The position numbers and the translations under genes are program-made. The notes under the pieces were generated by a model that ran no database searches, was not told where the DNA came from, and worked only from the letters and a program-made list of their open reading frames with translations. Shown in pieces: positions 40,410-57,986 of a stretch of DNA of 64,000 bases. Source of the DNA: a virus (Duplodnaviria; Caudoviricetes). Location of the stretch: positions 1 through 64,000 of the IMG/VR virus record IMGVR_UViG_3300032290_001460, one strand, 5' to 3'. How positions within the stretch are numbered: the first letter of the stretch is position 1; each line of letters starts with the position of its first letter.

Positions 40410-42497
40410 ATGGCTTGGAATCGCATCGACAATAAATCTATTAACCCTACCGGCATGAAGGGCACCTCAATACCTCCTGGTGCCCCAATTTCAACAAATC
40501 CAAGTTTCCAGGGTCGCGCCTACAGAGACCCGTGGGATATTGAGCGTGCATATCGCGAAGGCATGCAAAAAGTTACTTGGGTGTCACGATGTATTGACGC
40601 TATCGCAGGTAATCAGGCCCGTCTTCCCATAATTTTACGTAAAGACAACTCTCCCGATGGAGAAATCGTTACCAAAAAGCAAGGCAAATCCACAATTCTG
40701 GATATTTTGAATACTAAATCAAATATAGGCGAAAACTCATTCATTTTCAGATATCGCTTATCTTCACAGTTGCTTCTTGGTACTCGTGGAGTTTTTATTG
40801 AAAAATTAAAAGGCCGTGACGGAGCGTTGATTGGACTCAACTTACTCCCCCCACAGTCCACTTCCCCTATTCCTGACCCACGTTTGTTTGTGTCTGGCTA
40901 CGAAGTAAACATGCCCAATGGCGATAAAATCATCATGAAACCAGAAGATGTTATATGGATTCGCCGCCCACATCCACTTGACCCCTATCTTTCAATGACT
41001 CCAATGGAATCCGCTGGTATTGCCATTGAAATTGAAAACTTAGCCAAACTATATAACCGCAACTTTCTTCTCAATGATGGTCGTCCTGGTGGTTTGCTGG
41101 TTCTTCGTGGGGAAATTGATGAAGATGACAAGGAAGAATTAAGAAGTCGTTTCCGTGGCAACATGAGCCGAGTAGGAACCACTACTGTAGTGAGTGCGGA
41201 TGATGGTGTTGACTATGTAGATACTTCGTCTAACCCACGTGATGCCGCCTATATCCAGATGCGTCAAATCACTAAAGAAGAAATTCTTGCATCTTTCGGT
41301 GTTCCCGAGTCAGTTATTGGTAATGCTTCCGGAAGAACATTCGCCAACGCCAGCGAAGAAGTGAGCGTATTCTGGAATGAGACGATGTCCCCCCACCTAG
41401 AAGTTCTTGCTCGCGCTCTAGATGAACTTGACGATGAACACTATATTGACTTCGATACCTCCGATGTTCCCTATCTAATTTTGTCAAAACAAGAACGCGA
41501 ACGTTACTTGATGCAAGAATTGCAGGCTGGATTAATCAGTCCGAACGAATACCGTGACGGAACTGGAAGAAAAACAGTTGAATCAGACCTGGCAGACAGC
41601 CTTTTAATGAACCCGAACTTAACTCCAATTGCCAACACCACCAAGCCGATGCCGCCGCCCCCAGCACAGGGCGGAATGCCAGTCCCAGGCATGCCAGGAA
41701 TGCCCCCAGGTATGCCAGGAATGCCACCAGGAGCAGAAGGAATGCCTCCTGGGGCAGAATTGGGAGGTCCGGGCGTGGACCCGAATACGATGGCAGGGGC
41801 TTTGGCAGAAGAGTCTGGAATGCTCCCCGCTACTAGCGGTGCCCCAGGAATGCCCCCAGGTATGCCAGGAATGCCAGGAATGCCAGGGATGCCAGGAATG
41901 CCCCCAGGTGCTCCCGCAACGCCAGGCGGATTTGGACAAATGTCTGACCCTTCCGAAATGCTATTCAAGGATGACTTATTTGAAAAAGATACCGACCTTG
42001 CTCGTTGGATAGAAATACTTGACAGAAGTTTGGAACGCCTATTTGAACGTCAGCAACGTGTCGTACTCGAAAAGGTTGCTGGACAAAAATCACGCAAACT
42101 TTTGATGAGTGGCGGACTTGACGTAGATACCGTCATGCCTATTGATACCTGGAATAAGCAAATGGACGAAGACATTAAGCCAGTTCTTTCGGCCATTATC
42201 AAAGACGCCCAGGCTATCTATTCGACAAAATCCGCTTCTTACTCTAGCCCTGGTCAGAATGACATTTTGACTCATATCGAATCTCAGATGGAGCGAATTA
42301 AGAGTCGGAATAACGAAACTCAACGTTTAATTTCTGAAGCCATATATAATTCCTATGGGATACGGGACGAAGAACAGCGTGCTAGTGGTGTTAGGTCTAA
42401 CCTAAATTCTATTTTTACCGAAATTTTGGCTAAAAGACGACCAGATATGGCTATCAATGAGGCTCGTCGGGCGTGGAATTTCCCGCGCCCTCTATAG
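40410..42497 (+). CDS. Portal protein (HK97 family) with PGM-repeat linker and C-terminal extension
   Basis: WVSRCIDAIA, NDGRPGG, ILASFGVP, SPNEYR. Confidence 0.9.
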   Translation: MAWNRIDNKSINPTGMKGTSIPPGAPISTNPSFQGRAYRDPWDIERAYREGMQKVTWVSRCIDAIAGNQARLPIILRKDNSPDGEIVTKKQGKSTILDILNTKSNIGENSFIFRYRLSSQLLLGTRGVFIEKLKGRDGALIGLNLLPPQSTSPIPDPRLFVSGYEVNMPNGDKIIMKPEDVIWIRRPHPLDPYLSMTPMESAGIAIEIENLAKLYNRNFLLNDGRPGGLLVLRGEIDEDDKEELRSRFRGNMSRVGTTTVVSADDGVDYVDTSSNPRDAAYIQMRQITKEEILASFGVPESVIGNASGRTFANASEEVSVFWNETMSPHLEVLARALDELDDEHYIDFDTSDVPYLILSKQERERYLMQELQAGLISPNEYRDGTGRKTVESDLADSLLMNPNLTPIANTTKPMPPPPAQGGMPVPGMPGMPPGMPGMPPGAEGMPPGAELGGPGVDPNTMAGALAEESGMLPATSGAPGMPPGMPGMPGMPGMPGMPPGAPATPGGFGQMSDPSEMLFKDDLFEKDTDLARWIEILDRSLERLFERQQRVVLEKVAGQKSRKLLMSGGLDVDTVMPIDTWNKQMDEDIKPVLSAIIKDAQAIYSTKSASYSSPGQNDILTHIESQMERIKSRNNETQRLISEAIYNSYGIRDEEQRASGVRSNLNSIFTEILAKRRPDMAINEARRAWNFPRPL
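41680..41910 (+). repeat. CCAGGAATG-type (Pro-Gly-Met) coding repeats
   Basis: Multiple PGM/PPGM units within the portal gene. Confidence 0.85.
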
Positions 42498-42605: not shown

Positions 42606-45600
42606 ATGAGCCAAGGAACATTTGAAGACATCCATTTTAAGGCGATGAATGGCCAATTCAATATAGATGAGGCACAAGGAATCGTTGAATGTTTCGTTGC
42701 CGCCGTAGGTAACAAAGACTCCGTGGGTGACATCGTCGCATCGGGGGCATTTACAGAAAGTCTCAAGCGCCGCAAACCGCGCGTTGTATGGGGACACAAC
42801 TGGAACGACCCCATCGGTAAGGTTCTAGAAATTTACGAAGTACCAGCACACGACCCGCGTCTCCCAGGAAAAATGAAGCAAGCAGGAGTGGGCGGGCTCT
42901 ATGCGAAGGTTCAATTCAACCTTGCAACAGAAAAAGGTCGCGAAGCATTTGCTAGCGTCGCTTTCTTTGGTGGAGACCAAGAATGGTCTATCGGCTATAA
43001 GACTCTCCAAGCAAACTTTGACTCCGCCATGCAAGCAAACGTTTTGCGTGAAGTTGAACTGTACGAAGTGAGTCCAGTTCTTCATGGTGCAAATCAACTG
43101 ACAGCCACAATTTCCGTCAAGAGCGACGAAGGTGAAAAGTGCCACAGTCCTGCTATGGGCGCTGGAATGCCAATGATGCCAGCAGTAATGCGTGCTTTTA
43201 AACCAGGGATTCCAGAAGGTGGCCCATCGCGCATTTCGGCAAGAATTGGCTACGACGTTTCTAGTCCTCGTGAAGATATTTTTGCAGAAGGCGAAGCACG
43301 CGAACTTAATCGCGAAGAAATTTATAGACTTGAAGAAGAACTGATGTCACGTTCTAATAATCGTCTCAAGATTATCTCCGCAACTGAAAATATGGTCACA
43401 TTCCATCGGATGCTCCCCAATGGTTCATCAACGGCTTACCGTCTCCCATACCACTACGATACGGCTGTTAGACAATACATGTTTGGCAAACCAGAGAAGA
43501 TGGGACAAGGTCCTAGCCAGCCTCAACCACAAACAGTCGTTCCTATGCAGATGCCCAGTATGCCAATGTCTGTCAAGCCGAATGCCGTCAGCCCATATGC
43601 CATGGTTAACGGTGGATACGATGGCGAAAAATCCGTTGAAGAAAGACTCCATGAAGTTATTGCTGGCTTAAAGTTGCCGCTCTTCGACGATGAAGTAGCA
43701 GAAAAATCTCAACAAGATAAAATTGAGGAAGTAGTGAATCTTCTTCAATCCTATATTGAAGAGAAGAGCGAACCCATGCGTGTCATTATGAAATGTGAAC
43801 CGCATCAAGCGTTCCGTGTTAAGGAACTACTCGACCCGGTAATTGAGTATCACGGACTTCAGGCAGAAGTCAGTGAAAAGGGCGTCCATCTTTCAGGGAC
43901 ATTCAATGATGAAACACTCGATGCACTATATGCGTCAGAGAAAAGTATTCAACGGATGTTCATGAAAGAGGGTGGTTGGGGAAAAGATAACGGCCCTACG
44001 GGGCCGACCTTCGAAGTTGAAGTAAAAGCCCTCGGAGGCCGAGTTGGCCAAAGAATCGGTGGAGGCCTGAGTGCTGCACCACCAGGGATGGTTTGGGTTG
44101 ACGTAACCGGAGCCATAGATGGCGATAGCGATGGAATAGTTTTTGAGGGTACGCCTATGCAGCGTCCCATTATTCCTCGTGCGATGATTCCCAAGGTGCA
44201 GGCGTCTATACTTCAACAGACTTCCCTCCCCCGCGCTATGGAAATGGAGCGAAATAGGGTTCCTAAACCATCTGTTTCGCAAGAAGATTCCAAACCACGT
44301 TTAAATCAGGTTCCTAAAAAGAATGAATCAGATTCAGTGGTGCCTTCTAAGCCTATTCCAAAAATAGACGACACTATTCCAACACCCAGTAAGGCTCCTA
44401 AAAAAACTCAGGGGCGCAAATCAAGAAAAAGCCCTCCTACTAATCCGAATATATACGACCCGTGGGTTTATAGAAATTCAGGAACCGAGCGCATTCTTGG
44501 TAACGAATTCAGCATCATTACGCCACTAGATGAAATTATTAACTCTGTTAGTTCTAGAAGTAAAAAATTGACTCCTAAAGAAATTATTGACAATTATGCT
44601 TATTTCCTTAATTATAGAGGCCTAGACACTCAACAAGTTTTTAAAATTTTTGAAAACCATGGTTATGTTAATACTGAAAAAGTCAACCAAACCATATCTG
44701 ATGAGTTGAAATTTGCGATAGATGACATTATTGCGGCAGGCGGAAGAATTGTTTTTGCACAAAATAATCTTCTAATTAATTTGGGTGGCAATAAATTAAT
44801 AATTGATTTATTAGATAAAGATAGTTATAGTAATGTTAGACAGCAGTTAAGTATGCCCTTGAAGCAATTGTATGTAAAAGAAAGAAAGACAGTAACAAAT
44901 ATTTCGGACTTGTCTCCTAGGTATAATTATCTTAAGCCAGAATTGAAAAAATTAAAAGAAAAGTATGGCGATTATTTTGTTATACGCGCCCTGGATGCCG
45001 GCCATTATTCTGCTGTTCTTTTTGACCCCATCTCTGGTGACCCCCTAAAAACTTATCAATTTAGTGGTAGTCCACGAAGTACTTCTAACCTTTTAAAAAA
45101 CCTTTCTTCAGAATTTACAAATGCAGCCGTAGTTAGAAGATTTGAATCAGCAAAAATATGGAAGCCAGCGCGCGAAGTCATTGATAAAGTACCGTTGAGA
45201 CCAGCAAATGAAGGGGAAACCCCAAAATTCGGTCCGCTGAGTGGTACTTCTAAGTTGGTTCAGATTTTTTCTGAACTAGGTTTTTCGCCAGACAGTAAAG
45301 AATATCCTAATGCTCTCGTTGAATTAGAAATACATGATATTGGTGACGGAAAATTTGGTGTATATGGTGTAATCGTAGATGAAGATGGCATAGAACACCT
45401 CGTGAGCCAGGAGCAGGATGGTCTTGCAGATTCATTAGATTTTCTTCGTGCACTAGGTTCAGAATATTCTCAGTCGCAATTATCAGAAATGAGAAGTGCT
45501 CATCTAAGACGAATGGGGGTCGTTGGTCAATTGGGCGATACTTCTGGGTTGAGTCAAGAAGTTGAAGAAATGAGGGCTGCTCGTGATGAACGAACTTACA

Positions 45601-48600
45601 ATCAGTGGTTCGTTGATGATGGTAGTCGTTCGCAAAGAACACCTACCCTAATTTATAATACTGCCGCAAAATCTATAAGAGATATTTTTGATGATGAAAA
45701 AACATGGGACCCATTCTTTGAAGACCTAAAAGATGTTTTGGGTCATTCTCAAAAACAATCGCAACGCCTACTCGACCTCTACGATGACCCGAACGCTACA
45801 GAAGAGGCTATAACTAATCTTGAGGAATCAATTAGGGAATTAGATGAGCAAATTGCCGCCGTTATTGATTACGCAAAATTTTTAAATGGAGAAAATCGTC
45901 GCGCTCGTCTCAAAAGACTAAAGAATCCTCTTATTAACAAAATGATTGACGAACGTACTGGGGGCGAGTATTCGGATTTTACTGATGCTGAAATTGAAAG
46001 ACTTAGAAACAATCTGACTTTTTCCGAAAATGATATAAGCGATATCTTTGGCGTTGAGGGAAGCGATAAGGCTAGAAATTTCGTTGAATCAATGCAGGAT
46101 GTTTTAGATGATGCGGAATGGTATGACGGCATACTGAGCAGTCCTATAGAGGACGAGAATAACCCTGATTATTTGGAAAATCCATCTCAAGAACTTTACG
46201 ATGATGCTATTAGAAGTTTGAGCATGGAAATTGATTTCATAAAAGATGCTAGAAAGCGTAATCATCAACAAAGACTGGCTATTTCGGATGGTAGCAATTT
46301 ATCCGATGGCACCAGTCGCTCGCAGCGTTCCTTCATTAATGGACGTGGAGTGGGCGAAACTAGGCAGATTTTCCCCAATGAAGACAAACAGGGAACTAGT
46401 AAAAAAATTAAGTACGCTCGTTATGATGGGCGCAAAGAAGAACTGCTGGTTGAATATTCCTCTGGTGAAACCATCACCTATGGTGGAGTAACCGACAGGA
46501 TGGTTTCTGCAGTTGAGAAATCACTAGATGATATTGATGGCGGGATTGACGGGATAAAAGCAGAAGCACGCTATTCTATTAAACCAGATGGACAAATAGA
46601 AGGCAGGGCGGTTAGTGTAGCAACGCTAGTGCAGAGAGATATTGAACGTCTCGAACAATACGATGTTATTACTGCAAAAGATAAGTTATGGATGCAATTA
46701 GCAGCAAATGCCATATTGTCAAATTTTGAAGAACCGCCCGAATATGAACTATTATCCTTGTCTGACCAATTGGCTAATGTGGCAAATAAACTTGCTCGCG
46801 AATATGAAGAAAATTCTGCAGCCCTAAACCTTTTAGAAATTAAAAGTTCTATTGACGACAGAGTAGGCAATGGGCTTGGCGGAACTCGCGGTACACGCAT
46901 GTATCGTCCACTGAAGGATGAAACAACATTAGATTTAACCAATGACGAAATTGGTGAATTAAGAGACGAAATTCAATCAATTCTAAACAAACATGGAGAC
47001 AGAATTACTTTTGCTCCTTTTGCAGAATTTGACAAAGCGTTAAAGGACGCTCAAGATTCAAACAAAAATAATGTAACAATTAAAAATAATTTACATTCAG
47101 CATTAACCGTTGCTTACGATGAACTTTACTGGATGGCTTCACACAGTCAAGCAGAGAAAAGATGGCTCAACCCCATTGGGGAAACACTACTCAATATTGC
47201 TGCAGCATCCGGAAGATTCACCTCCCCACGCCTCAGTGCCAATAGGGGAGACTTCAAGGGCGTCCCATTCAATAATGGCGCACCATCAAGAATGACCCCC
47301 GAAGCACGAACTACCCTCATAGATTGGGCAAACGGAGACGGATTAGGGTTCTATGTTCTAAAAGACATACGTGATTCTTATCGACTCAGGAATGGAAATC
47401 TCACCTCGCGACAGTGGAACACTCTTGCGAACATGTACAGGCGCTTTGGTCCTGGTGGCAGTGACAGAAAAGACTCAAGTAGTAGAAGTAAAAAAGATAC
47501 AGAAATCTACTATGCCATTGTCCCTTCGGACGTCCCGGACCAAATTGACGATGAGGAAGAAGAAAAACCAAAACCCAAGAAGCCAGTAGGAAAACCTGCT
47601 TCAGAGTTACTGCCAGGCGACTTTGATTCAATGACTGCAAAAGAAAAAATTGATGTCATGTTTCAAATTGGACGTGCAACAAAAGATAATCCCGATGGCA
47701 TCGCCCCAGAAGATTGGGACAGACTAATTTATCCCCTAGACAAGGAACTTGATGTAGAAGAAGCAGTACAGAACCAAGCAGAATTCATGGCTGCACAAGA
47801 AGCCGCTGCAATGAGAGGCGAAGTACTAACAGAAGAACAGTTCTACGAAAACAAATCACGTCAAGCGGAATTACACGACAGAAGAACAATACAGCGTGCA
47901 TTAAGTGAATACGACGCTGGACGACCCGAGTTATTGCAAAAACTTGGCCTACGTAGAGAAAACTTTATTATTAAAGCAGATAGAGAATACAAGGCCCCCA
48001 CTAAGCCAAAGCCGTTAGGTAAATGGGCTACAGATTTCTCCATGAAGATACGTTCTCAAATAGAAAAAGCAATTGCCAATGGGCTTGCCGGAGAAGAACA
48101 TCTTGACCCATGGCTATCCATGGAAGAACTTATTAATGACAACGATGGTCTCCTTGATGAAGAAACTATCCAAAACATTATCCCTGTCCTAGAAGAATAT
48201 GTCAGTGCTTATGATGGGGCAGAATTTGGACATCGTTCAGAAGGTAATAGTTATAAACAAGCCAACGACATGATTGAGGAGTTGGAAAATACTCTTTCAA
48301 TTCTTCTTGACCCAACAATAATCGAAGACGATTCCGATGATAGCGGAGATGACAAGAAAGACAGCGACGCTGCCTCAGAAGTTCCAGATACAACTCAGGG
48401 AGTTTCTCTATCCATAGAGGGCGATAGTGGTTCAAAAAGCCGTCGCTCATCATCTATGGCAAGTACTACGGGCAGACAAGACGCTGTTGATTCCGGAAGT
48501 AACCAAATAAATTCCGAAGATAGTAGCAGGAGTATCCGAGAAGTAATCAAATTAGAAGATTTACTTGAAATAGATAAGCGCGAACAATCCGAAGATATGG

Positions 48601-51600
48601 GAGAACCATTCGTTGAGTTATCAAAGGCCCTCGAAAATTGGTTAAATAATCATATTTCAGATATGGGCGGATGGGACAAAAGTCACGAAACTCGACTACG
48701 TAGGCAGGTAGAAGATTTAATTTTGAATTTACGTGGCTTGCGAGACAAGTGGCAGTCCATGGGGACTGCTAAACGAAGCGGAATATTGAGACGCATGAAG
48801 ATGGTTGATGGCTACGAACCGCACCCTCTAACTAAAATGTCACTTGAAGATATCATTAGTAAATCAGAATTACGTATTCACGATGACGGAACTCTGTCTT
48901 TCAAATTGCCTCCCAACCCAATATTGCGGCAACTCATACCAGGCAACAGAAATTATCAAGATGTAGAGTTGCCCACTGCTGAAACTGTTAGTGAAATTTT
49001 TGATAATCTCACAAATGATTGGCGCAGATTAGATGAATTATTCAATTCAATATATGAAGTTTTTGATGAAGATGAAGACGGGCGACGTGGAGCGCGCCTA
49101 AGGAAATACCCTGTCGGCGGGGAAAAACTGCCGCACCACTCCTTGTATCTTGGCAAGTACGCTGAACCCCCGACAGAAGCACCATCTCCGGAAGGGGCGC
49201 TCCAATACCACTACAACGACATTTCTGCTCGTATTCTTCAGTATTACATTATCCCTGAATTAGCAAAAATTAAACGCAATGAAAATCCAAAAATTGGAGA
49301 AATCTCCAACGATAACGACCATTTTATTCATGGATATTTACAGTTATTTACAGACCCGCATGCCTGGCAGGAGATGAGTGCTGTGTTGTCTGAAAACTTC
49401 CGTGTATCGCCCGGCACCATATTGCATGACTTATTGGGGCACTACGCCCTTGGTAATACTTTTGATAGACACGGAGAATATGGAAATATTCTTTCAACAA
49501 TTCAACTTGCTCGCGATAAGAAGTTCTGGCAGAAGTTGCGCGAGATACCAGAACTTTCTGACCTATCCGAAGAGGACAGGGACCTCTACATGCGCGGCTT
49601 GCTCGTTGATGTGGCCGCAAGATGGTTTAATCGTGTCGGTACAGACTCCCCGGATGACGAGAGGAGATTGAAGAAGAAAATAGCGTTCTACGATGGACCT
49701 ATTGATGAACTTCTTGACAAAATCGACCCGCCTAACGAACAATCGTCAAGTTCTAGTCGTTCTACACGAAGAATCCCATTAATCGATGTCGATGATAAAC
49801 AACTTTCTGAGTTAGGTAAAGAATCTATTGATGGTATTGCAATAAGAGAAGAATTTATTAGACCATCTTCTCGTGACGAATTAGAACAATTTGTTTCACG
49901 AAGAAAACCGATAGGTTCGGACCTGCCTGTTGATTTACGCACTGGCGAACCTCGCCGCATGTCTCATGAGACAGACAGAGAGTGGAATGCTAGAAGAAAT
50001 AATTTTTATAGAAACAACCCATGGTTTGACCGGCCCCCTATTGATGCTTCTGAAGATTCCCCTAAAATTGATAGAAATAACGAATTTGGTGATGGAGAAT
50101 TAATTAAACCCTCATATAAATTTAATTTTAAATGGAACCAGTATCAAGATTATACTGATGAGGAATTAATAGATAAACTTAAATCAGACAAAAAACCTTC
50201 CAATACTTTGGTGCATGAATTGTCTTTACGTGGATATGAAGTTAGAAAAAAAAGAGAATATGATTTAGGTGATTTTAGTGGTAGGGAAGGATATGACTAC
50301 ACATACTTCTTTGCTAAGCCAATGGATGAAATAACCCAAGAGCATCTTGATAGAAGAAAATCTAAATACAATCCAGTTGATGAAACACAAAAAATAGATG
50401 AGCCGTCAACCAGCATAATTCCTACATTGGAAGAAGACGTTGTTGATGAACAGGATTTTGTTGAGCCAGAAGAATTCCCATTAAAGCCGAAACAGCCCAG
50501 GGTTCCTCGTCCTCGACCCGGTACCAACACCGTGAATATTGGTGGCAATAATTCGGGAATCATAAATCTCGGCAACAATGTGACAATTGATACTGGCGAC
50601 ATAAATGTTTCTAATCAGGGCAGTAAGATTACTATTATTAATGGGAACAAGGTTACTGTTGATGCCAATACGGATGTATTGAGTATGCCATTGAAAAAAG
50701 TTGATGAAGAACTTGCTAGCATACAGAAAGATTTAGCGGAACTTAAAGAAAGAAGAGTAAAGGGCAGTATTTCTGATGCTGATTATGCTCAGCGACGCGT
50801 AGATTTGGCTAATAGGAAAGTTGCTCTCAAATTAAAGAAACATTCCGTCCCTGATGGTGATGCAACCAAGGGCACACCCAATGTTTCCTATATTGGCAAC
50901 AGTTCAAGGTCAACCAGAAATATTGATTATTATCGTAGGGAATTTAATCTTTCTCCAGAAGATTTGGAATTCATCAAATATACCAATGCCCCAGATTTAT
51001 TTTTGCGTGAAGAATTTGGGATAGACGATACAGCCATAGCAGACATTCGTTCTTATGTGCCGCCGTTGGATGTCATCAAGGAAATAGATTCTTTAACCGA
51101 TGATGATGTTAGATTCCTTGAATCTTACGATGGTATTGTTTCACAAATTACTGAAGAATTTAATTCTTTTGTAACTCGGACGATGGCCGAACGTCTTCAG
51201 GCTATTCAATACATAGGAAATTCTAATCTCCCTGAATTGGAAAAACAAGAAAACATAAAAGAAATTGATGATGCATTTAATGAATTATTAAAAGTTAACA
51301 GTGAAATACATTTCGATAGGCTGAATGATGCCGTACTATATACGGCACCTTTAAATTATCGCGGTTTTGGTTGGAGGATGACCCCAGAAAGAATTTCTTC
51401 ACTTGGCTTACCTGAAGGCTATGAAAACAAATTAAAGTTCAATCAGGCTACTCGCATTTGGGAAATGATGAATGGACTGGGCTTTGACTGGGACGAAATC
51501 GAAGATTTCACTGGTTTGACTTTTGATGAATTGAAACCCCTATTCCCACATGTCCGAATTATCGGGATGATACGCGAACAGGAGAAAAACTCTTTAAATA

Positions 51601-54600
51601 ATCCTCCTGAAGATGGTTCTTCTTCTCGTTCAATGAGGCCCGAACGTCGTCAGATAGTCCCAATATCTGGGAATTATACGAGACAAGGTAATTTACATAG
51701 AAAGTTAGATGGACTTCTAACACCCGGCAGTAGTGATTATCGCAAAGATGATTTAAGTGATGAGGAAATATCTGCCATAAAGAAGTTTAGTTACTCCCAA
51801 ACAGTAAGGTACGACTACGACTATGACCCGTTGTCGTTAATGACCTACGAAGAATTAGACACATTATCAAATCTCATAAGTGCAGACAGAGCAAAGTCTT
51901 TAAACGTTGAATTCGATAAAGATTTTCGAAAATTAATCGAACAAGAATTCGACATACGAGACATACGAAATGACCCCTTCAAGTATCGAGGTGGTGGCAA
52001 CGAAAGAAAATTAAAGAGAGAATTCGTATCTGCAGAAGAATTCTTAGGCCCAGGCATGGACGGATATGCAATTAATAGAGGGATGCATGGTGGATGGCTG
52101 TATCCGGATGGACGCATATATCCGCTACAACAAGATTCCCACGGTACTGAGTTTGTTTATCGTGATGCTTTTGAAGATGGTTTAATTCGGATTATTTTCT
52201 CTCAAAAAAGTCAAAGGCGAGATTCATCTATGGATTTGGAAATAGCAGACGCTCGACCAACTCCAGAGCAGTATGAGACTTTACAGAAACTTATGGATGC
52301 TGGAGAACCTAGTGAAATACGTTTTGCTGCTGGTAAAAAAAGTGAGGAGTATGATGCGTCTTATACTTCTCGACCCACTTATCAGTATGAGAATGTTTTA
52401 CGTGGCAAAGATACTAAAAAATTAAAAGAATCTTTGACGCAAGAAGTTTCATGGAAGCAAGAAGAGTCTACTAGTGATGACAGTTCTTCTTCTCTCTCAA
52501 AAAAGGGAACATATCGACCTCTTCTTGGTCATACGTTCGAAGGTTATGGTCAAGCGGAAAAGAAGTTGTCATACAGTTTAGAAAAATTAAGTAAACAAAA
52601 TGGTGCTGCCAAAAAATTAAACGATGAAGAAAAAAATGTAATTGAAAAATATTTTCAAATCAAAAATGCAGATGCAGAGCCATTGAGATTACTCTCAGAT
52701 GATGAAATAAAAACTTTACTTAATTTAATTAGTGAAGAAAAACTGACAGTGAGAAATGCCGACCTATCTGCAGAACTGTTGGGTGTTTATAGAAAAGATG
52801 CAGAATATTTACTTATACGAGAATTAGATATTCGTTCCAACCCTCAAAAATATAAGTTTGGTGGAAATGAAAGAAAACTAAAAAACAGATTTCTTTCAGC
52901 AAAACAACTAGTCGACCCTGAAACAATGGGTGTTTGGGAGACTCCATCATTACGGGCAGCATGGCTTTATCCAGATGGAAGGCTTTATCACGTAACTGAT
53001 GGACATACAAAAGAACATACCTACAACGACGCTTTTGGAGATGGTCTTATTAGGTTGAATGTAAGTTTGGCCAAGGAAAAAGATGACAGAGGTCCAGCCA
53101 CCGCTCCATTTTTGGCTATACATGCAGCCGACATAGCCCCTACTGCTGAGCAAATGAAAATATTAGAGGAACTTATTGATGTAGCCAAGCCGAAAGAAAT
53201 CTTCTATCAGGCTGGAGTGAGTAGCAAAATACATAATCCGAACGAAGTTATTCCTGACGACTCCGACTTTGGCATCTATGTAGAAGGTGAACGAAGTGGA
53301 ACTATAAAATCTGGCGACCTGAAGAAAAGGCTGAAGCAAGAATTGGATGCAGTTGGCTGGGCGAAATTGCCAGACAACGACTCTTCTTCTCGTTCCAAGA
53401 AAGATACAGATTCTGATTTATCTGACGAAGAATTTAAAATCATCGACGATTTTGTTAATGCTGATATCGACAACATTGAGCCAGTTGAAGAAGAACCTAC
53501 GGACGGCCGAACGCGTCGGGCTCGTGCAAAAAAAAGAGAAGAATTCTTAAGAGATGCTGTTACTCAAATCATCAAACTTTCAGAAAATGCGGAAAAATTT
53601 AAACGTGGGCCAGATGCTGGTGAAGTCTCTGGAGGTCTTTTGGAAAAGGTGGCACAGATGTTCGCCGCAGGAGACTATAGCATCATAGATAAATATGAAA
53701 AAATAGTCAAAGAAAAAGGCGCAGGAACAAGCCCGGGTGAATTTTTTGCTAACTCATATTATAAATATGAATCACTTGGCGCCGAACAAAGATTAGAACG
53801 CCAAAAAGGTGGAAACAAGCAAAAGGGCAAGTTTGTTGAAAATATAGAAGCATTAGAAGCAAAAATAACTGATGGGGAAAGTAGTTTTGTTTTGCCAGAA
53901 TTGTCTATAGAAGATGATTTGAGCGTCGGTGAAATTGATGAAGACGTCGCTAAGAAAATTGCGTTTTATGATAAATTTGAAGAATATTTACCCTTACATG
54001 CAGAAATTATGGGATATATCGGGTCTGGGATGACTGCATCTAAAATTAGCAAGCAAACAGGAGTTCCTATAAAGATAGTTAATGCGATGAAAAGCAATAT
54101 GGCTTTTATTGCAGAACAATTGGGCGATATTGAAAATTGGCCCCTGGATTCACTGGACGAAGATTATCGGGATATAGCGAAACTTTTGCCAGGTGACGAT
54201 ATGTCGTTAAATTTGGATATTGCCAAACGTCTTCAAAAAGCAAAAACATTTTTTGAAACTATCGAATTTGATAGAGATACTGGAGAAATAAGTTTCGAGC
54301 AAACATCAATTGCTCAAAGACAAATTAAACTTGAAAAAAATAATGATATTATATTGTCATTTTTTGAGGACGGGAAGCCTGCTCCGACCATAGAGGAAAT
54401 TGCCAAAGCCCTTGGCGTTACGTTCGATTCCGCCAGAGGGCTAATTGTTAGATTGCGGAAAACTACTGGTAGAAAACTGAAAACTGGGAAGAAGGAAGAA
54501 AATAGCAAAAAAATAGATGATGATATTTTATCTTTATTTAAAGATGCTGAAAATCCACCGACTAAGAATGAACTGACGAAATTGACAGGACTATCACAGG

Positions 54601-55871
54601 ATGCAGTATATATCCGATTAATTAAATTGCGTGAAAATACTGGTCGAGAATTAAGCCTCGCAACAGATGACGAAAGAATAAATAATACAATTCTGTCTTT
54701 CTTTAAAGATGGCGGAAAATCGCCAGATATGAAGAAAATAATGGAAGTAACAGGCCTGCCATATAAAGCGATACATAAAAGACTAGTAAGGTTGCGTAAG
54801 AAAACTGGACGTGAACTAAAACTGGAAGGGCAGCGAACGAGCGTAATAGGAGATATTGGTGAGACTATTTTATCGTTTTTCGAGGATGGTAAAATTCCGC
54901 CAACTCGCGAACAACTAGCAGATGCAACGGGTTTGCAATTAGATTCGATAAGTCAAAAGTTATCTAAATTACGAGAAATAACTGGGCGGGATTTGCCAGT
55001 TCGTATAAATCGAACAATTGAGCCGAAAAGTGCAGAAATAAACAATACAATTTTATCTTTATTTAAAGATGATGAAAAAAATCCTACTAGTGCTGAAATT
55101 ATTGAAGCGACAGGGTTGACGCGTTCAATGTTGGGGAAAAGATTGGAATATTTGCGTAAAAGAACTGGGCGTGAATTAAAACTAAGAAAAAAAGAAAATA
55201 AAGAAAAAAAACCTAAATTGGTTGTTGAACGCAAACCTAAATTGGTTGTTGAACGCAAACCTGGAGATACGTCCAAAGAAGAAAAAAAGACTCCAGACGA
55301 ATTGGTCTTATCTTTATTCAAAGATAGTAAAACGCCCCCAACCATGCAGGAAATAGTAAGAGAATTAGGAGTGTCGTATCCGGCTGCGAAAGAACGGCTT
55401 AAGAGATTACGCCAAAAAACCGGCATGGCATTGTCAATTACTCCCGTGCCGGCGATGCCAATATTAAATGATGCCATAAATCAACAACTTTTATCTTTGT
55501 TTGAAAATAATAAAAATATAACTACTGAACAAATTGCGAAAGCAACAGGGTTGTCTGTTTCTGCAATAAAGGGCAGATTGGTTCGTTTACGAAAAGAAAC
55601 AGGAAAAGAGTTATCTATTAGTAGAGACCTGCCACCAAGCCTTAGAGATGATATTAGTAAGACTATTTTATCATTTTTTGAAGAAGGTAAAAGTGCACCA
55701 ACCCGACAGCAACTAGTGGACGCAACGGGATTCTCCGCAGATGGAGTAACTAGACGCTTACAAAAATTGCGTAAAGGAACTGGGATGGACCTACAACTCG
55801 CCGGAACCAAAACCCCCGAAGGTCGAACCACAATGCCGAAGTTAGAAATTATTCCACCAAAAGAAAAATAA
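42606..55871 (+). CDS. 4421-aa prohead protease-fused modular (polyvalent-like) protein
   Basis: First ~170 aa are HK97-type protease (GNKDSVGD, WGHNW..PIG, WSIGY, LYEVSPVLHGAN). Then SRS-motif-delimited modules, a KTSC-like segment and 8 C-terminal HTH repeats. Confidence 0.85.
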   Translation: MSQGTFEDIHFKAMNGQFNIDEAQGIVECFVAAVGNKDSVGDIVASGAFTESLKRRKPRVVWGHNWNDPIGKVLEIYEVPAHDPRLPGKMKQAGVGGLYAKVQFNLATEKGREAFASVAFFGGDQEWSIGYKTLQANFDSAMQANVLREVELYEVSPVLHGANQLTATISVKSDEGEKCHSPAMGAGMPMMPAVMRAFKPGIPEGGPSRISARIGYDVSSPREDIFAEGEARELNREEIYRLEEELMSRSNNRLKIISATENMVTFHRMLPNGSSTAYRLPYHYDTAVRQYMFGKPEKMGQGPSQPQPQTVVPMQMPSMPMSVKPNAVSPYAMVNGGYDGEKSVEERLHEVIAGLKLPLFDDEVAEKSQQDKIEEVVNLLQSYIEEKSEPMRVIMKCEPHQAFRVKELLDPVIEYHGLQAEVSEKGVHLSGTFNDETLDALYASEKSIQRMFMKEGGWGKDNGPTGPTFEVEVKALGGRVGQRIGGGLSAAPPGMVWVDVTGAIDGDSDGIVFEGTPMQRPIIPRAMIPKVQASILQQTSLPRAMEMERNRVPKPSVSQEDSKPRLNQVPKKNESDSVVPSKPIPKIDDTIPTPSKAPKKTQGRKSRKSPPTNPNIYDPWVYRNSGTERILGNEFSIITPLDEIINSVSSRSKKLTPKEIIDNYAYFLNYRGLDTQQVFKIFENHGYVNTEKVNQTISDELKFAIDDIIAAGGRIVFAQNNLLINLGGNKLIIDLLDKDSYSNVRQQLSMPLKQLYVKERKTVTNISDLSPRYNYLKPELKKLKEKYGDYFVIRALDAGHYSAVLFDPISGDPLKTYQFSGSPRSTSNLLKNLSSEFTNAAVVRRFESAKIWKPAREVIDKVPLRPANEGETPKFGPLSGTSKLVQIFSELGFSPDSKEYPNALVELEIHDIGDGKFGVYGVIVDEDGIEHLVSQEQDGLADSLDFLRALGSEYSQSQLSEMRSAHLRRMGVVGQLGDTSGLSQEVEEMRAARDERTYNQWFVDDGSRSQRTPTLIYNTAAKSIRDIFDDEKTWDPFFEDLKDVLGHSQKQSQRLLDLYDDPNATEEAITNLEESIRELDEQIAAVIDYAKFLNGENRRARLKRLKNPLINKMIDERTGGEYSDFTDAEIERLRNNLTFSENDISDIFGVEGSDKARNFVESMQDVLDDAEWYDGILSSPIEDENNPDYLENPSQELYDDAIRSLSMEIDFIKDARKRNHQQRLAISDGSNLSDGTSRSQRSFINGRGVGETRQIFPNEDKQGTSKKIKYARYDGRKEELLVEYSSGETITYGGVTDRMVSAVEKSLDDIDGGIDGIKAEARYSIKPDGQIEGRAVSVATLVQRDIERLEQYDVITAKDKLWMQLAANAILSNFEEPPEYELLSLSDQLANVANKLAREYEENSAALNLLEIKSSIDDRVGNGLGGTRGTRMYRPLKDETTLDLTNDEIGELRDEIQSILNKHGDRITFAPFAEFDKALKDAQDSNKNNVTIKNNLHSALTVAYDELYWMASHSQAEKRWLNPIGETLLNIAAASGRFTSPRLSANRGDFKGVPFNNGAPSRMTPEARTTLIDWANGDGLGFYVLKDIRDSYRLRNGNLTSRQWNTLANMYRRFGPGGSDRKDSSSRSKKDTEIYYAIVPSDVPDQIDDEEEEKPKPKKPVGKPASELLPGDFDSMTAKEKIDVMFQIGRATKDNPDGIAPEDWDRLIYPLDKELDVEEAVQNQAEFMAAQEAAAMRGEVLTEEQFYENKSRQAELHDRRTIQRALSEYDAGRPELLQKLGLRRENFIIKADREYKAPTKPKPLGKWATDFSMKIRSQIEKAIANGLAGEEHLDPWLSMEELINDNDGLLDEETIQNIIPVLEEYVSAYDGAEFGHRSEGNSYKQANDMIEELENTLSILLDPTIIEDDSDDSGDDKKDSDAASEVPDTTQGVSLSIEGDSGSKSRRSSSMASTTGRQDAVDSGSNQINSEDSSRSIREVIKLEDLLEIDKREQSEDMGEPFVELSKALENWLNNHISDMGGWDKSHETRLRRQVEDLILNLRGLRDKWQSMGTAKRSGILRRMKMVDGYEPHPLTKMSLEDIISKSELRIHDDGTLSFKLPPNPILRQLIPGNRNYQDVELPTAETVSEIFDNLTNDWRRLDELFNSIYEVFDEDEDGRRGARLRKYPVGGEKLPHHSLYLGKYAEPPTEAPSPEGALQYHYNDISARILQYYIIPELAKIKRNENPKIGEISNDNDHFIHGYLQLFTDPHAWQEMSAVLSENFRVSPGTILHDLLGHYALGNTFDRHGEYGNILSTIQLARDKKFWQKLREIPELSDLSEEDRDLYMRGLLVDVAARWFNRVGTDSPDDERRLKKKIAFYDGPIDELLDKIDPPNEQSSSSSRSTRRIPLIDVDDKQLSELGKESIDGIAIREEFIRPSSRDELEQFVSRRKPIGSDLPVDLRTGEPRRMSHETDREWNARRNNFYRNNPWFDRPPIDASEDSPKIDRNNEFGDGELIKPSYKFNFKWNQYQDYTDEELIDKLKSDKKPSNTLVHELSLRGYEVRKKREYDLGDFSGREGYDYTYFFAKPMDEITQEHLDRRKSKYNPVDETQKIDEPSTSIIPTLEEDVVDEQDFVEPEEFPLKPKQPRVPRPRPGTNTVNIGGNNSGIINLGNNVTIDTGDINVSNQGSKITIINGNKVTVDANTDVLSMPLKKVDEELASIQKDLAELKERRVKGSISDADYAQRRVDLANRKVALKLKKHSVPDGDATKGTPNVSYIGNSSRSTRNIDYYRREFNLSPEDLEFIKYTNAPDLFLREEFGIDDTAIADIRSYVPPLDVIKEIDSLTDDDVRFLESYDGIVSQITEEFNSFVTRTMAERLQAIQYIGNSNLPELEKQENIKEIDDAFNELLKVNSEIHFDRLNDAVLYTAPLNYRGFGWRMTPERISSLGLPEGYENKLKFNQATRIWEMMNGLGFDWDEIEDFTGLTFDELKPLFPHVRIIGMIREQEKNSLNNPPEDGSSSRSMRPERRQIVPISGNYTRQGNLHRKLDGLLTPGSSDYRKDDLSDEEISAIKKFSYSQTVRYDYDYDPLSLMTYEELDTLSNLISADRAKSLNVEFDKDFRKLIEQEFDIRDIRNDPFKYRGGGNERKLKREFVSAEEFLGPGMDGYAINRGMHGGWLYPDGRIYPLQQDSHGTEFVYRDAFEDGLIRIIFSQKSQRRDSSMDLEIADARPTPEQYETLQKLMDAGEPSEIRFAAGKKSEEYDASYTSRPTYQYENVLRGKDTKKLKESLTQEVSWKQEESTSDDSSSSLSKKGTYRPLLGHTFEGYGQAEKKLSYSLEKLSKQNGAAKKLNDEEKNVIEKYFQIKNADAEPLRLLSDDEIKTLLNLISEEKLTVRNADLSAELLGVYRKDAEYLLIRELDIRSNPQKYKFGGNERKLKNRFLSAKQLVDPETMGVWETPSLRAAWLYPDGRLYHVTDGHTKEHTYNDAFGDGLIRLNVSLAKEKDDRGPATAPFLAIHAADIAPTAEQMKILEELIDVAKPKEIFYQAGVSSKIHNPNEVIPDDSDFGIYVEGERSGTIKSGDLKKRLKQELDAVGWAKLPDNDSSSRSKKDTDSDLSDEEFKIIDDFVNADIDNIEPVEEEPTDGRTRRARAKKREEFLRDAVTQIIKLSENAEKFKRGPDAGEVSGGLLEKVAQMFAAGDYSIIDKYEKIVKEKGAGTSPGEFFANSYYKYESLGAEQRLERQKGGNKQKGKFVENIEALEAKITDGESSFVLPELSIEDDLSVGEIDEDVAKKIAFYDKFEEYLPLHAEIMGYIGSGMTASKISKQTGVPIKIVNAMKSNMAFIAEQLGDIENWPLDSLDEDYRDIAKLLPGDDMSLNLDIAKRLQKAKTFFETIEFDRDTGEISFEQTSIAQRQIKLEKNNDIILSFFEDGKPAPTIEEIAKALGVTFDSARGLIVRLRKTTGRKLKTGKKEENSKKIDDDILSLFKDAENPPTKNELTKLTGLSQDAVYIRLIKLRENTGRELSLATDDERINNTILSFFKDGGKSPDMKKIMEVTGLPYKAIHKRLVRLRKKTGRELKLEGQRTSVIGDIGETILSFFEDGKIPPTREQLADATGLQLDSISQKLSKLREITGRDLPVRINRTIEPKSAEINNTILSLFKDDEKNPTSAEIIEATGLTRSMLGKRLEYLRKRTGRELKLRKKENKEKKPKLVVERKPKLVVERKPGDTSKEEKKTPDELVLSLFKDSKTPPTMQEIVRELGVSYPAAKERLKRLRQKTGMALSITPVPAMPILNDAINQQLLSLFENNKNITTEQIAKATGLSVSAIKGRLVRLRKETGKELSISRDLPPSLRDDISKTILSFFEEGKSAPTRQQLVDATGFSADGVTRRLQKLRKGTGMDLQLAGTKTPEGRTTMPKLEIIPPKEK
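54342..55800 (+). repeat. Eight tandem HTH-like domains
   Basis: Consensus ILSxF[KE]D....PT..[EQ]I...TG......RL.[RK]LR..TG..L, eight copies. Confidence 0.85.
55209..55262 (+). repeat. Perfect 24-nt tandem duplication (KPKLVVER x2)
   Basis: AAACCTAAATTGGTTGTTGAACGC twice, plus AAACCT. Confidence 0.9.
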
Positions 55872-56157: not shown

Positions 56158-57954
56158 ATGAATTACGACGAAAAAGCCGTAGTGAAAATTGATGCCGAAG
56201 GTGGCGTCGTCAAATGTGCCAAAGGTGCAACAGGAAGCGACTGCGGCTACAAGGCAGGCGCAAAAGTTTGTGGAAAATGCGGAGCAATGGCCGTTGAAAT
56301 CAAAATGGTTCCCGTCGATGCCATGGACGAAGACATGGAAGACGACGAGGAGATTACTCCTGAAGAACAGAAAATGTTGATGCGTCGTCGCAAGGCTATG
56401 CAAATGGGCATGGGCGATATGGCCGAAGAAGAAGATGTCATGGACGACGACGAGGAGATGACCCCCGAAGAACAGAAAATGGCCATGGACTACGAAAAAA
56501 TGATGCTCAAGCGCAAGGGCATGGGCAAATATACGGAAGACGAAGAAGTCTTAGAAGTGCCCGAAGAAGACGAGATGATGGACGAAGAAGCCGTCACCCC
56601 AACAGCAAAAACTTATGGAATGAATCGCTTTAGAAAAGGCATGCCTGGGGTTTCGGCCATGGATGAAGATATGGCCGAAGAAGAAGATGTCATGGACGAC
56701 GACGAGGAAATGACCCCCGAAGAACAAAAAATGGCTATGGCCTACGAAAAAATGATGCGTATGCGCAAGGGTATGGGCGAATACGTGGAAGACGAAGAAG
56801 AAATGCTTAGCCCTGCCAAGGGGATGGGCATGACGAAGCCAGGCATGAAGTTCAAGAATCCAATGGCTAAGCCAGGAATGGCCGGAATGCTTTCGGACGA
56901 AGAAGATGACATGGACATCGAAGAAGAACTCCCATTGGACGATGCCGAAATGCCAATGGCAATGCCCAAAAAGAAGAACTACATGGGGGCAGAACCCAGC
57001 GCAGTATCTCCAGACATGGAAGCAATGCGCATGGCACGACTTAGAAAACTCGGTACCAAGTCTGCTGACATCGGTGCCAACGGATACTTGTGTGCTATCG
57101 AACGCAAAGTCTACCCCGGCGCCAACTCGGTATGTGACGACTGCCCAGGTGGATGCGTCTCAGAAAAAGGAATGCCTGGCCTCCTCCACATCGAAGGCCT
57201 TGCAGAACAAATGTTCAAGGGCGACGTTATCGACTCTGGCTACTCGCAAGAAGCCGACATGTTCGTCGTTGATGTCCAGGTAAAGTCTGGTCATGTCAAC
57301 GAAGTTTTTGTTGACGGCACAACCGGAGAAGTCCTAGGATTCCATCGCCTTGACGATTCAGTGTTCGAACAGAAGTCACTCGTCAGCGACATCGAAATCA
57401 TTGACTTCAACGAAGCGGCAGATATTGCTGTCAAGTCAATCCCCGGTACAGTAGTCGCCGTAGAACCAGCAATCTTTGAAGGTTTTGACTCATACCAAGT
57501 CGAAATCGATGGTCTTGACGGAAAATCTTACGATGCTTTCGTTTCGCTTGATGGCGAAGTTTTGGGCTACGACCAGTGGGACAATGACGACACAGCAGAG
57601 ATTGAGGCTGAAGCCGCAGAAATTGCTTTGAAGCGCGCATTCGGTGACGAGAAGCGTCAAGAAATGGCTGAAGAAGGCACAGCAATGCCTGACGGCTCAT
57701 TCCCCATTGCCAGCGAAGAAGACCTTCGTAACGCAATCATGGCTCATGGTAGAGCGAAGGATGTTGAGGCAGCAAAGCGTCATATCATGAAGCAGGCTGC
57801 AGCAATGGGTAAGGAAGACATGATTCCAGCAGAGTGGGTCGCCGGACAGAAGAATCTTTCAATTGAAGATGATTTGAACGGCACTGACGAGTTCTTGAAG
57901 ACTTTGGTTGAGTTTGAATTAATGTCTGCAGAAGTTTCCGACAACGAACTGTGA
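56158..57954 (+). CDS. Acidic Met-rich head-associated protein with Cys clusters, PepSY-like domains and a PDGSFPI (DUF6582-like) domain
   Basis: AAGGAG RBS. CGY..VCGKCG and C..CDDCPGGC clusters; EAADIAVKSIPGTVVAVE..YQVEI..DG.SYDAFVSLDGEVL; AMPDGSFPI..DLRNAI..GRA. Confidence 0.75.
   Translation: MNYDEKAVVKIDAEGGVVKCAKGATGSDCGYKAGAKVCGKCGAMAVEIKMVPVDAMDEDMEDDEEITPEEQKMLMRRRKAMQMGMGDMAEEEDVMDDDEEMTPEEQKMAMDYEKMMLKRKGMGKYTEDEEVLEVPEEDEMMDEEAVTPTAKTYGMNRFRKGMPGVSAMDEDMAEEEDVMDDDEEMTPEEQKMAMAYEKMMRMRKGMGEYVEDEEEMLSPAKGMGMTKPGMKFKNPMAKPGMAGMLSDEEDDMDIEEELPLDDAEMPMAMPKKKNYMGAEPSAVSPDMEAMRMARLRKLGTKSADIGANGYLCAIERKVYPGANSVCDDCPGGCVSEKGMPGLLHIEGLAEQMFKGDVIDSGYSQEADMFVVDVQVKSGHVNEVFVDGTTGEVLGFHRLDDSVFEQKSLVSDIEIIDFNEAADIAVKSIPGTVVAVEPAIFEGFDSYQVEIDGLDGKSYDAFVSLDGEVLGYDQWDNDDTAEIEAEAAEIALKRAFGDEKRQEMAEEGTAMPDGSFPIASEEDLRNAIMAHGRAKDVEAAKRHIMKQAAAMGKEDMIPAEWVAGQKNLSIEDDLNGTDEFLKTLVEFELMSAEVSDNEL
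56416..56800 (+). repeat. Near-identical internal duplication (~130 nt units starting at 56416 and 56668)
   Basis: DMAEEEDVMDDDEEMTPEEQKMAMxYEKMMxxRKGMGxYxEDEE twice. Confidence 0.85.
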
Positions 57955-57986
57955 TTCATAGTTCTATTTAGGGATTGGAGCCCGGT

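Follow-up and report, generated by a model that had tools for sequence, protein, structure and literature searches.

A giant open reading frame (ORF) at positions 42606-55871 on the plus strand of an IMG/VR virus record (IMGVR_UViG_3300032290_001460; 106,308 bp; CheckV completeness 71%) encodes a protein of 4421 amino acids (aa) that begins with an HK97-type prohead protease domain and carries 11 copies of a short motif, S-S-R-S-x-[R/K]. The stretch that we analyzed (the window) is the first 64 kb, or 64,000 nucleotides, of this record. The ORF belongs to an uncultured freshwater (lake-water) myovirus of about 150 kb, and the record includes genes for a tail sheath, a large terminase, and a portal protein. 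We propose, with a probability of roughly 45%, that the head module encodes several carrier-tag-cargo polyproteins (polyvalent proteins), this protein among them, and that the motif is a site at which these chains would be cut. The proposal is built on the enrichment and distribution of the motif, on the module borders that it marks, on its concerted change between clades, on a shared tag that lies ahead of every site, and on a split form of the system in which the protease is a separate protein. Below, P0001 is the window protein and P0002 onward are related polyproteins, while G000 is the window genome and G001-G005 are related genomes. The features of P0001 are:

42606-55871, plus strand: the putative carrier-tag-cargo polyprotein P0001, 4421 aa, an uninterrupted frame
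42669-43127, plus strand: HK97-type prohead serine protease domain, aa 22-174 (PF04586, phrog_80)
43296-43955, plus strand: two conserved small carrier domains, aa 231-300 and aa 371-450
44037-44201, plus strand: shared tag of ~45 aa, aa 478-532
44223-44531, plus strand: basic Pro/Ser/Lys-rich spacer ahead of the first site, aa 540-642, predicted to be disordered (pLDDT, the predicted local distance difference test, is 31-37)
44550-44567, plus strand: motif 1, SSRSKK, aa 649, kept in P0002-P0005
45621-45638, plus strand: motif 2, GSRSQR, aa 1006
46311-46328, plus strand: motif 3, TSRSQR, aa 1236
47478-47495, plus strand: motif 4, SSRSKK, aa 1625, deleted in P0002
48429-48446, plus strand: motif 5, GSKSRR, aa 1942
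48522-48539, plus strand: motif 6, SSRSIR, aa 1973
48531-49760, plus strand: module s6, aa 1976-2385, in P0002-4 and absent in P0005/6
49752-49769, plus strand: motif 7, SSRSTR, aa 2383
50901-50918, plus strand: motif 8, SSRSTR, aa 2766
51621-51638, plus strand: motif 9, SSRSMR, aa 3006
51630-52496, plus strand: module s9, aa 3009-3297, a paralogue of s10 (one copy only in P0003-6)
52488-52505, plus strand: motif 10, SSLSKK, aa 3295, degenerate (Leu for Arg)
52497-53393, plus strand: module s10, aa 3298-3596
53385-53402, plus strand: motif 11, SSRSKK, aa 3594
54351-55805, plus strand: eight tandem winged-helix/helix-turn-helix (HTH) DNA-binding repeats with a period of ~58 aa, in the last, motif-free module

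The motif is far commoner in P0001 than expected by chance. The pattern [SGT]S[RKL]S.[RK] occurs 11 times where 0.14 copies are expected (the maximum in 2000 shuffles was 2), and SRS.[RK] occurs 9 times (0.24 expected). An initial annotation of this DNA had described an unbroken 4421-aa frame headed by an HK97-type protease, with 11 motif copies; we find the frame and the protease (aa 22-174, 41.1 bits), and every copy lies exactly where it had been placed. Its description of the surroundings of the motif also holds. Successive sites are 357, 230, 389, 317, 31, 410, 383, 240, 289, and 299 aa apart (that is, 230-410 aa with one gap of 31 aa), and the residues before the core are mostly Asp, Gly, or Ser, giving an extended logo in this genome of [D/G/S]-[S/D]-S-S-R-S-x-R. 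The hydrophobic fraction of the 15 residues upstream of the sites is 0.21 vs. 0.30. The codons differ from copy to copy, as had been claimed (AGT, TCT, TCA, AGC, or TCG for Ser; AGA, CGT, CGC, or AGG for Arg), so the motif is conserved at the protein level. For the same reason, we rejected a DNA-level repeat or recombination signal at the motifs.

The distribution of the motif within the genome is equally uneven. In a crude proteome of the whole genome, S[RK]Sx[RK] has 26 copies in seven proteins of the head block (the 52-kb stretch from portal to capsid gene; 16,624 aa) and none in the other 17,127 aa (Fisher p = 1e-8). Thus, the expectation that the motif would stand out against the rest of the proteome was right as to enrichment but not as to ownership: it is not private to P0001 and is common to six more downstream proteins. 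It is absent from the capsid protein (whose conserved N-terminus was searched too). Among the capsid protein, the portal, and a 353-aa ORF, the sole match is SKSQR at aa 108 of the 353-aa ORF.

The sites sit at the borders of modules. In a 2740-aa protein of the window genome, sites 1526 and 1875 enclose ArdC-N (1548-1663) and MPTase (1706-1816), and sites 592 and 1526 flank a zeta-toxin-like kinase together with pentapeptide repeats. In the related polyprotein P0065, the interval from site 2193 to site 2876 is taken up by a UvrD helicase, and 7 aa separate the last site from the start of ArdC. When P0001-P0006 are aligned, the sites are conserved, the flanks are variable, and large indels begin and end at sites; modules have been gained, lost, and duplicated exactly at motif borders, as a comparison of homologous loci was meant to reveal. 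(For example, s9 is an extra cassette directly after GSSSRSMR, which is motif 9, and it has its own terminal site.) The duplicated module that had been noticed is this s9 (aa 3009-3297) with s10 (aa 3298-3596): the two share 37% identity across about 200 aa, and each runs from one motif to the next. A search for related loci with module s10 found no relatives. The identity of the same two proteins is a mosaic, ranging from 46 to 96% from module to module. Natural lake populations diverge most strongly at ~48.6-50.5 kb (modules s6-s7): three independent lake metagenomes hold a divergent allele of ~48600-50500, with about 570 unrelated letters in part of it, between flanks that are 99% identical. 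Also, the module at aa 2434-2686 of P0001 is found in a second giant ORF as well, which suggests that cassettes move between carriers. The earlier picture of an expandable cargo array fits the module indels and the duplication at motif borders.

Relatives of P0001 use the same layout with other motifs. At least 222 clusters of relatives, of 2.4-5.7 kaa, have its first ~530 aa in common, and their cargo domains include ArdC-N with MPTase, UvrD, KTSC, pentapeptide repeats, sigma-70 region 4, RNase T, WYL, and HTH. The exact SRSx[RK] is kept solely in the closest relatives (78-86% identity, 7-10 copies). Nearly every one of more than 100 related polyproteins has a recurrent peptide of its own in 8-26 copies: GMRSR, GxRSRS, GLRSxT, RGMxS, GFAS, RxGLAS, DGFASRG, R[LF]SSG, or GLSSG. 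(The [LF]SSG and DGFASR classes are present among P0029, P0065, P0098, and others.) The motif classes have a common register, [G/S]-[M/L/F/S]-[R/K/A/S]-S, in which the last Ser is invariant; in this lineage's motif the hydrophobic position has become Ser and the presumed P1 position is basic. Motif class is in step with the N-terminal phylogeny: it changes 6 times on that tree, as compared to 47.6 times with shuffled labels.

To see these motifs in their genomes, we compared full portal-to-capsid blocks in the five related genomes (G001-G005), whose own motifs are GMRSR, GFSSxT, RxGLAS, GSKSxT, and RGMASR. In four of the five, the genome's own motif occurs in three to five giant ORFs of the head block; the motif of G002 is weak (6 copies plus 1). 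In all five it is absent from the portal, the capsid protein, and conserved ORFs of ~600 and ~670 aa. Even close relatives differ: G000 has SSRSxR and G004 has GSKSxT despite 61% N-terminal identity. As all of the copies within a genome change in concert, a single trans-acting, co-evolving reader is called for. Judging from sequence comparison, S-S-R-S-x-[R/K] may well be this lineage's form of a genome-wide, clade-specific punctuation signal, a view that we hold tentatively. The initial annotation had taken the motif for a processing site. The motif does behave like an inter-module signal, bracketing whole ArdC and UvrD units and changing in concert; the cut itself is what we infer. We consider a cargo array with processing sites to be likely.

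In tblastn searches of 50,697 phage records, aa 1-665 of P0001 matched through the protease domain alone and the tag had no match, so no cultured relative was found. The cultured actinophage Gordonia phage DalanDe encodes a 1633-aa "capsid maturation protease" (gp27) with an S78 domain in its C-terminal third (about aa 1123-1296) that is 43% identical to the window's. We rejected gp27 as a model for the polyprotein system, as it has no recurrent motif.

The shared tag (core FDPNAxDGDxDGxVQEGTPxxRPxxP) was found by BLAST among the proteins of the block and then with a hidden Markov model. It occurs once per protein, in seven proteins of the window genome and in three or four in each of the five related genomes (24 proteins in 6 genomes). 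In 19 of the 19 tagged proteins that have sites, every site is downstream of the tag. Six tagged proteins of the window genome have no protease domain, and neither do most tagged proteins overall. Furthermore, the protease is encoded on its own in G004 and in locus L016, by ORFs of 468 and 463 aa whose ends lie just ahead of the tag position, and in G004 the 3693-aa cargo ORF opens with the tag (aa 26-76), behind a plausible ribosome-binding site. Because of this split and because most tagged proteins lack a protease, the tag rather than the protease is the likely address that would bring the chains into the procapsid. The protease fusion is common but dispensable, and the idea that the protease anchors the chain in the procapsid, which was part of the initial annotation, is unlikely. 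A prediction of the complex of capsid protein and tag scored 0.00, which speaks neither way.

A 1435-aa ORF behind the capsid gene (genome 95609-99916; L105:9610-13917) has the tag in mid-protein (aa 605-648), DUF6321 at aa 380-451, and no motif. The 353-aa ORF just upstream of the capsid gene (genome 92529-93590; L105:6530-7591), which is putatively scaffold-like, matches the tag-bearing part of this 1435-aa ORF with 28% identity across 277 aa. In G003, a 3112-aa ORF with 10 sites lies beyond the capsid gene as seen from the portal.

Several disparate domains are joined in the one chain of P0001: the S78 protease, eight winged HTH repeats, and about nine modules that we could not assign. The protease is encoded in the head module, directly after the portal gene, and its Peptidase_S78 match (PF04586, aa 22-174) scores 41.1 bits with a cut-off of 21 (phrog_80, E 6.9e-27). 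In a 29-sequence alignment, the catalytic residues His64 (VWGHNW; 42795-42797) and Ser128 (EWSIGY; 42987-42989) are invariant, the peptides FMFGKPE and PSQMPSMP in the carrier's disordered linker are conserved, and the spacer at aa 540-642 is unalignable between clades. An AlphaFold2 (AF2) model of the N-terminal 660 aa has a mean pLDDT of 51, and only the two small domains are confident (77-88 for aa 231-300 and 75-85 for aa 371-450, with <40 for the disordered linker that joins them). A Foldseek search of this model against the PDB gave nothing at E <= 0.001. The linear peptides FMFGKPE and PSQMPSMPMQVKP (window 43479-43595, aa 292-330), in the predicted disordered linker of the carrier, are conserved across clades nearly as well as the protease itself; they could be an S78 self-cleavage or capsid-docking element.

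The cargo of P0001 comprises eleven pieces of 31 to 825 aa, and cuts at all 11 sites would give twelve fragments, including a 651-aa carrier piece. The winged HTH repeats start at aa 3916, 3974, 4029, 4088, 4149, 4234, 4295, and 4354, and the array matches LexA_DNA_bind, MarR_2, HTH_24, and other Pfam families. Most of the modules (about nine) have no detectable family, and Pfam finds no zincin (MPTase) domain in P0001. A phmmer search with the whole of P0001 against PDB sequences found nothing.

In the system that we propose, a conserved N-terminal carrier (the S78 protease and two small domains) would be followed by one tag, a disordered spacer, and then a site plus a module, repeated. The modules would be swappable cassettes: in P0001 the final one holds the eight-HTH DNA-binding array, and those of sister proteins include ArdC, a zeta-toxin-like kinase, pentapeptide repeats, UvrD helicase, RNase T, and sigma region 4. 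S-S-R-S-x-[R/K] would be an endoproteolytic site, so that chains are cut into about a dozen separate proteins. The tag, and not a covalent link to the protease, would bring the chains into the procapsid, and the reader would be a phage-encoded enzyme that co-evolves with the sites.

Which enzyme might read the motif? The relevant features outside of P0001 are:

57975-64000, plus strand, running to genome 68063: second giant ORF, 3362 aa, with four motif sites in its C-terminal half
60153-60167, plus strand: conserved HExxH (HEIGH, aa 727-731 of the second giant ORF), a candidate zincin active site
17296-21882, minus strand: putative tail tape-measure protein, 1528 aa, downstream of the sheath gene
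20023-20043, minus strand: near-match ASRSQGI in the mid-linker of the tape-measure protein (aa 614-620), where the full motif is absent

The N-terminal ~1500 aa of the second giant ORF are free of motifs, and the ORF has no tag. Its HExxH is aligned and invariant in 6 genomes (H231, E232, and H235 in alignment numbering), along with an invariant Q, E343, and E347 downstream. The region has no Pfam or PHROG match (the six aligned members give just sub-threshold noise in Pfam), and a profile of the alignment found nothing among PDB sequences. An AF2 model from the 6-sequence alignment has a pLDDT of 45, which is too low for a fold search; the best scores in an ESM Atlas search, 0.76, were below use; and a homologue search gave 7 matches, none with a name or a Pfam domain. 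So, of the "downstream zincin" of the initial annotation, the conserved HExxH stands, whereas Pfam, PHROG, and the PDB offer no family or fold to go with it. Another zincin, MPTase-PolyVal (PF18818), is present in the 2740-aa protein of the window genome but is absent from three of the five relatives with clear motifs, and we therefore rejected it as a universal reader.

The S78 domain is 74-85% identical across clades with differing motifs, while the flanking carrier is 29-46% identical, and the motifs differ at three positions between clades that share the near-invariant S78 domain. No clade motif is present in the capsid protein, whose delta-like N-terminus is conserved and is accompanied by an Ala-rich linker. 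The tape-measure homologues of G001 and G003 (41-43% identity) carry the clade motif in a variable mid-linker, with 3 copies of GLAS in G003 (~0.05 expected) and 1 of GMRS in G001. We lean slightly towards the conserved HExxH (zincin-like) domain as the reader over the nearly invariant S78 domain. Also, because the relatives' tape-measure proteins carry the same signal, the data suggest that cutting is not confined to the prohead and perhaps even takes place after ejection.

A bolder version, which we think unlikely, is a genome-specific three-part code of tag, punctuation peptide, and co-evolving reader protease. More than 10,000 residues of swappable anti-defence and takeover modules would be carried in a few polyprotein trains. 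These would leave intact through the tail, following the tape measure, and would be cut into functional proteins once a new cell is infected, not before. Ejection behind the tape measure is proposed because the tape-measure protein of relatives bears the same signal. If true, intact ejection with cutting in the new host would be a delivery logic not described for any phage.

Several points weigh against a cutting site read by a zincin-like enzyme. We infer every cut, as well as packaging, ejection, and the identity of the reader. The tag is a putative address. It is the conserved HExxH...E that makes the zincin a candidate; its AF2 model is unusable and the protein has no tag. The fast divergence of the zincin region is unspecific, because all but the protease and the capsid protein diverge at that rate. 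The tape-measure argument depends on relatives, since the window's own protein of this kind has just the near-match ASRSQG. Finally, there is the S78 protease, which in each genome is either fused to the largest substrate or encoded next to it. It might carry the chain into the procapsid and cut the motif in all of the marked proteins inside the prohead, and the tape-measure matches would then be incidental or reflect cytoplasmic activity. We consider this somewhat unlikely and give it real weight. The domain has both catalytic residues, invariant, and heads the largest substrate; all motifs are downstream of the carrier; and the marked proteins are clustered between the portal and capsid genes. 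Assemblin sites (cut between Ala and Ser) and HK97 sites (cut between Lys and Ser) have a P1' Ser, which the invariant Ser of the motif classes would fit. Protease positions 135, 137, and 148, near Ser128, co-vary with motif class, a pattern that phylogeny confounds, and the roughly 25% divergence of the S78 sequence could retune the pocket. By analogy, the prior is strong, as prohead proteases such as T4 gp21 and phiKZ gp175 are known to act on many internal proteins of the head, which they cut at a short consensus (PMC5694885, PMC10052503), and a herpesvirus protease is likewise N-terminal to a scaffold with a capsid-binding end and is freed by cleavage (PMC8537868). Nevertheless, the domain remains 74-85% identical while the motif goes from SSRS to GMRS, GLAS, GFAS, or LSSG. 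The capsid protein, which should be the prime substrate, is highly conserved and never has the clade motif, and tape-measure homologues, which are outside the head, are marked significantly in G003 and G001. The covalent link is dispensable in the split clade, and six tagged proteins of the window genome lack a protease domain.

The motif might instead be recognized without being cut, as a site of Ser modification (phosphorylation, glycosylation, or similar) or a docking site for a chaperone or the capsid interior, with the chains left intact. All motif classes share one invariant Ser, a sister polyprotein includes a zeta-toxin-like kinase domain, and concerted change needs a co-evolving reader that is not necessarily a protease. 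Giant uncut virion proteins do exist; for example, one article has the N4 vRNAP packaged unprocessed (PMC5512222). However, one site per module border, with [module + site] as the unit of exchange, is what a cleavable linker predicts, and protease domains are built into the same proteins. Also, the kinase and MPTase are not universal, and an uncut 4421-aa chain in which disordered joints link unrelated domains would be hard, though not impossible, to fit and eject. We find this quite improbable. It is very improbable that the motif lacks a dedicated reader and acts as a passive, flexible linker or a recombination joint between cassettes: the upstream flanks are indeed poor in hydrophobic residues and rich in D/G/S, and modules are exchanged at motif points, but the differing codons leave no DNA-level homology to drive recombination, and neither a 4-6-residue sequence kept in 26 places nor the concerted replacement of all copies between clades would be expected. 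We give hardly any credence to cutting by a host protease, in the producing cell or after ejection. Such enzymes can act on phage heads (the host Prp cuts head proteins of Staphylococcus phage 80alpha), the tape-measure protein and head cargo would meet the same cytoplasmic enzyme, and motif classes could track host lineages. But the motif differs sharply between phages as close as G000 and G004, the specificities of housekeeping proteases are usually conserved, and two phage-encoded candidates are at hand.

If the motif is a cutting site, then modular payload takes up roughly half of the coding capacity from the portal to the capsid gene (about 16,600 residues, or some 50 kb of a ~150-kb genome). 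The parts list of the payload could then be read from the sequence, with each piece between sites being a candidate injected effector, and dozens of orphan modules would gain a functional context. The system would also be a natural toolkit for loading capsids, in which a portable tag goes with a short, orthogonal peptide for cleavage and with matching proteases of at least five specificities. And protease specificity would have shifted in concert with tens of sites per genome over short evolutionary distances. The phage is found again in many metagenomes of lake water, so its system is common ecologically and not a curiosity. At least 13 differently labelled studies hold at least 74% of the sampled words.

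The ORF at 42606-55871 is nearly fully covered by contigs of independent lake-water metagenomes. The only indels listed in these contigs are a compensating 1-nt cluster at 53774-53791. One contig joint, a 167-nt skip at 55071-55239 in the C-terminal HTH repeat array, may reflect variation in repeat number or mapping ambiguity. Parts of the ORF are covered by metatranscriptome contigs, and such cover is no sign of transcription.

Around P0001, plus-strand genes fill 52 kb between the portal (40410-42497) and the capsid gene (genome 94000-95319), with ORFs of 4421, 3362, 2740, 1825, 978, 673, 598, 539, and 536 aa among them. The landmarks are:

40410-42497, plus strand: portal protein, 695 aa, with a Pro/Gly/Met-rich C-terminal repeat region and without the motif (PF04860, E 2.4e-47; phrog_2662)
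56158-57954, plus strand: conserved 598-aa ORF with no motif, no tag, and no family
genome 94000-95319: capsid gene (PF05065), 38 kb past the polyprotein, with cargo genes in between

The next gene after the polyprotein in G001, G003, G004, G005, and locus L005 is a syntenic ORF of 461-709 aa, which G002 lacks. A long Pro/Gly/Met-rich repeat (GMPGMPPG...) occupies aa ~415-510 of the portal (window ~41650-41940), and similar low-complexity stretches are present in the second giant ORF (aa 877-930) and the 1435-aa ORF that follows the capsid gene. On the other side of the portal, the large terminase ORF (37651-40122, minus strand) is 823 aa long, nearly twice the 438 aa of its syntenic relative in L005. 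It has PHROG matches in two stretches and an N-terminal DnaC-like match (aa 39-119), and it may contain an insertion, an extension, or a fused domain. Further upstream of the head module, on the minus strand, are a PAPS-reductase-like gene (27992-29134), a ParB-like gene (31572-32366), and a pair encoding an exonuclease and an Erf/Rad52-type annealing protein (35590-37123). The gene order ParB, PD-(D/E)XK, Rad52, terminase, portal is also found in L005. At the start of the window, positions 1-2000 have a G+C content of 55% (vs. ~43% elsewhere), and a 557-aa ORF (1927-3600, minus strand) matches head-decoration and tail-fibre PHROGs.

How does this system compare to those already described? Among the closest are the polyvalent proteins of phages and conjugative elements (Iyer, Burroughs, Anand, de Souza, and Aravind, 2017), which are likewise giant multidomain chains of unrelated activities (ArdC-N, MPTase zincin, UvrD-type helicase, and DNA-binding domains). 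According to that article, they are encoded by virion-module genes, their packaging, injection, and proteolytic processing are predicted, the processing is ascribed to MPTase zincins, and assemblin-like peptidases are at C-termini only and of limited distribution (PMC5512222). Here, the link to the virion is the position of the polyprotein gene, with the portal gene on one side and the capsid gene on the other, and its fusion to a prohead protease. Unlike in the published polyvalent proteins, the S78 protease is N-terminal, several proteins per genome have a clade-specific motif, a common tag of ~45 aa precedes all sites, and MPTase is not universal. A term search of PMC5512222 found no mention of a recurrent site motif or a shared tag, and our literature search found no published description of a system of tag plus clade-specific punctuation.

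The internal proteins IPI-III and Alt of T4 and the inner-body or ejection proteins of phiKZ and SPN3US also combine an address, a protease site, and cargo, and they are ejected with the DNA. They are cut at a consensus by the prohead protease (PMC9024508, PMC5694885, PMC10052503). That protease is of the gp21 type (S77), its L/I-x-E or S/A/G-x-E sites are conserved over large distances, and it cuts the capsid protein too. In the window system, we found neither an S77 protease nor a Glu-ending consensus in common with the capsid protein; instead, there is an S78 protease, an unrelated motif that shifts between close clades, and an unmarked capsid protein. Also, the T4 and phiKZ substrates are separate proteins of small or medium size, whereas here they are polyproteins of 0.5-4.4 kaa with up to 23 sites. 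For the targeting sequence ahead of the first site, the shared tag, which is upstream of all sites in 19 of 19 proteins, is a candidate counterpart.

In the Dar system of P1, a very large anti-restriction effector (DarB, 250 kDa, with an N-terminal 30-aa signal) is loaded into the capsid and delivered to the host (PMC9024508), which is similar to what we propose. In contrast, there is no consensus signal among the Dar proteins, DarB is not described as a chain that is repeatedly cut, and loading requires the helpers Hdf and DarA. The herpesvirus UL26-type precursor is similar in another way: it has an N-terminal serine protease of the assemblin family, an end with a capsid-binding motif, and release at defined sites (PMC8537868). 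It differs in having two to four sites, no cargo modules, and a site consensus that is conserved across the family. The tag itself resembles both the capsid-targeting sequences that direct the packaging of T4 IPIII and P1 DarB (PMC9024508) and the capsid-binding end of the herpesvirus protease-scaffold protein (PMC8537868).

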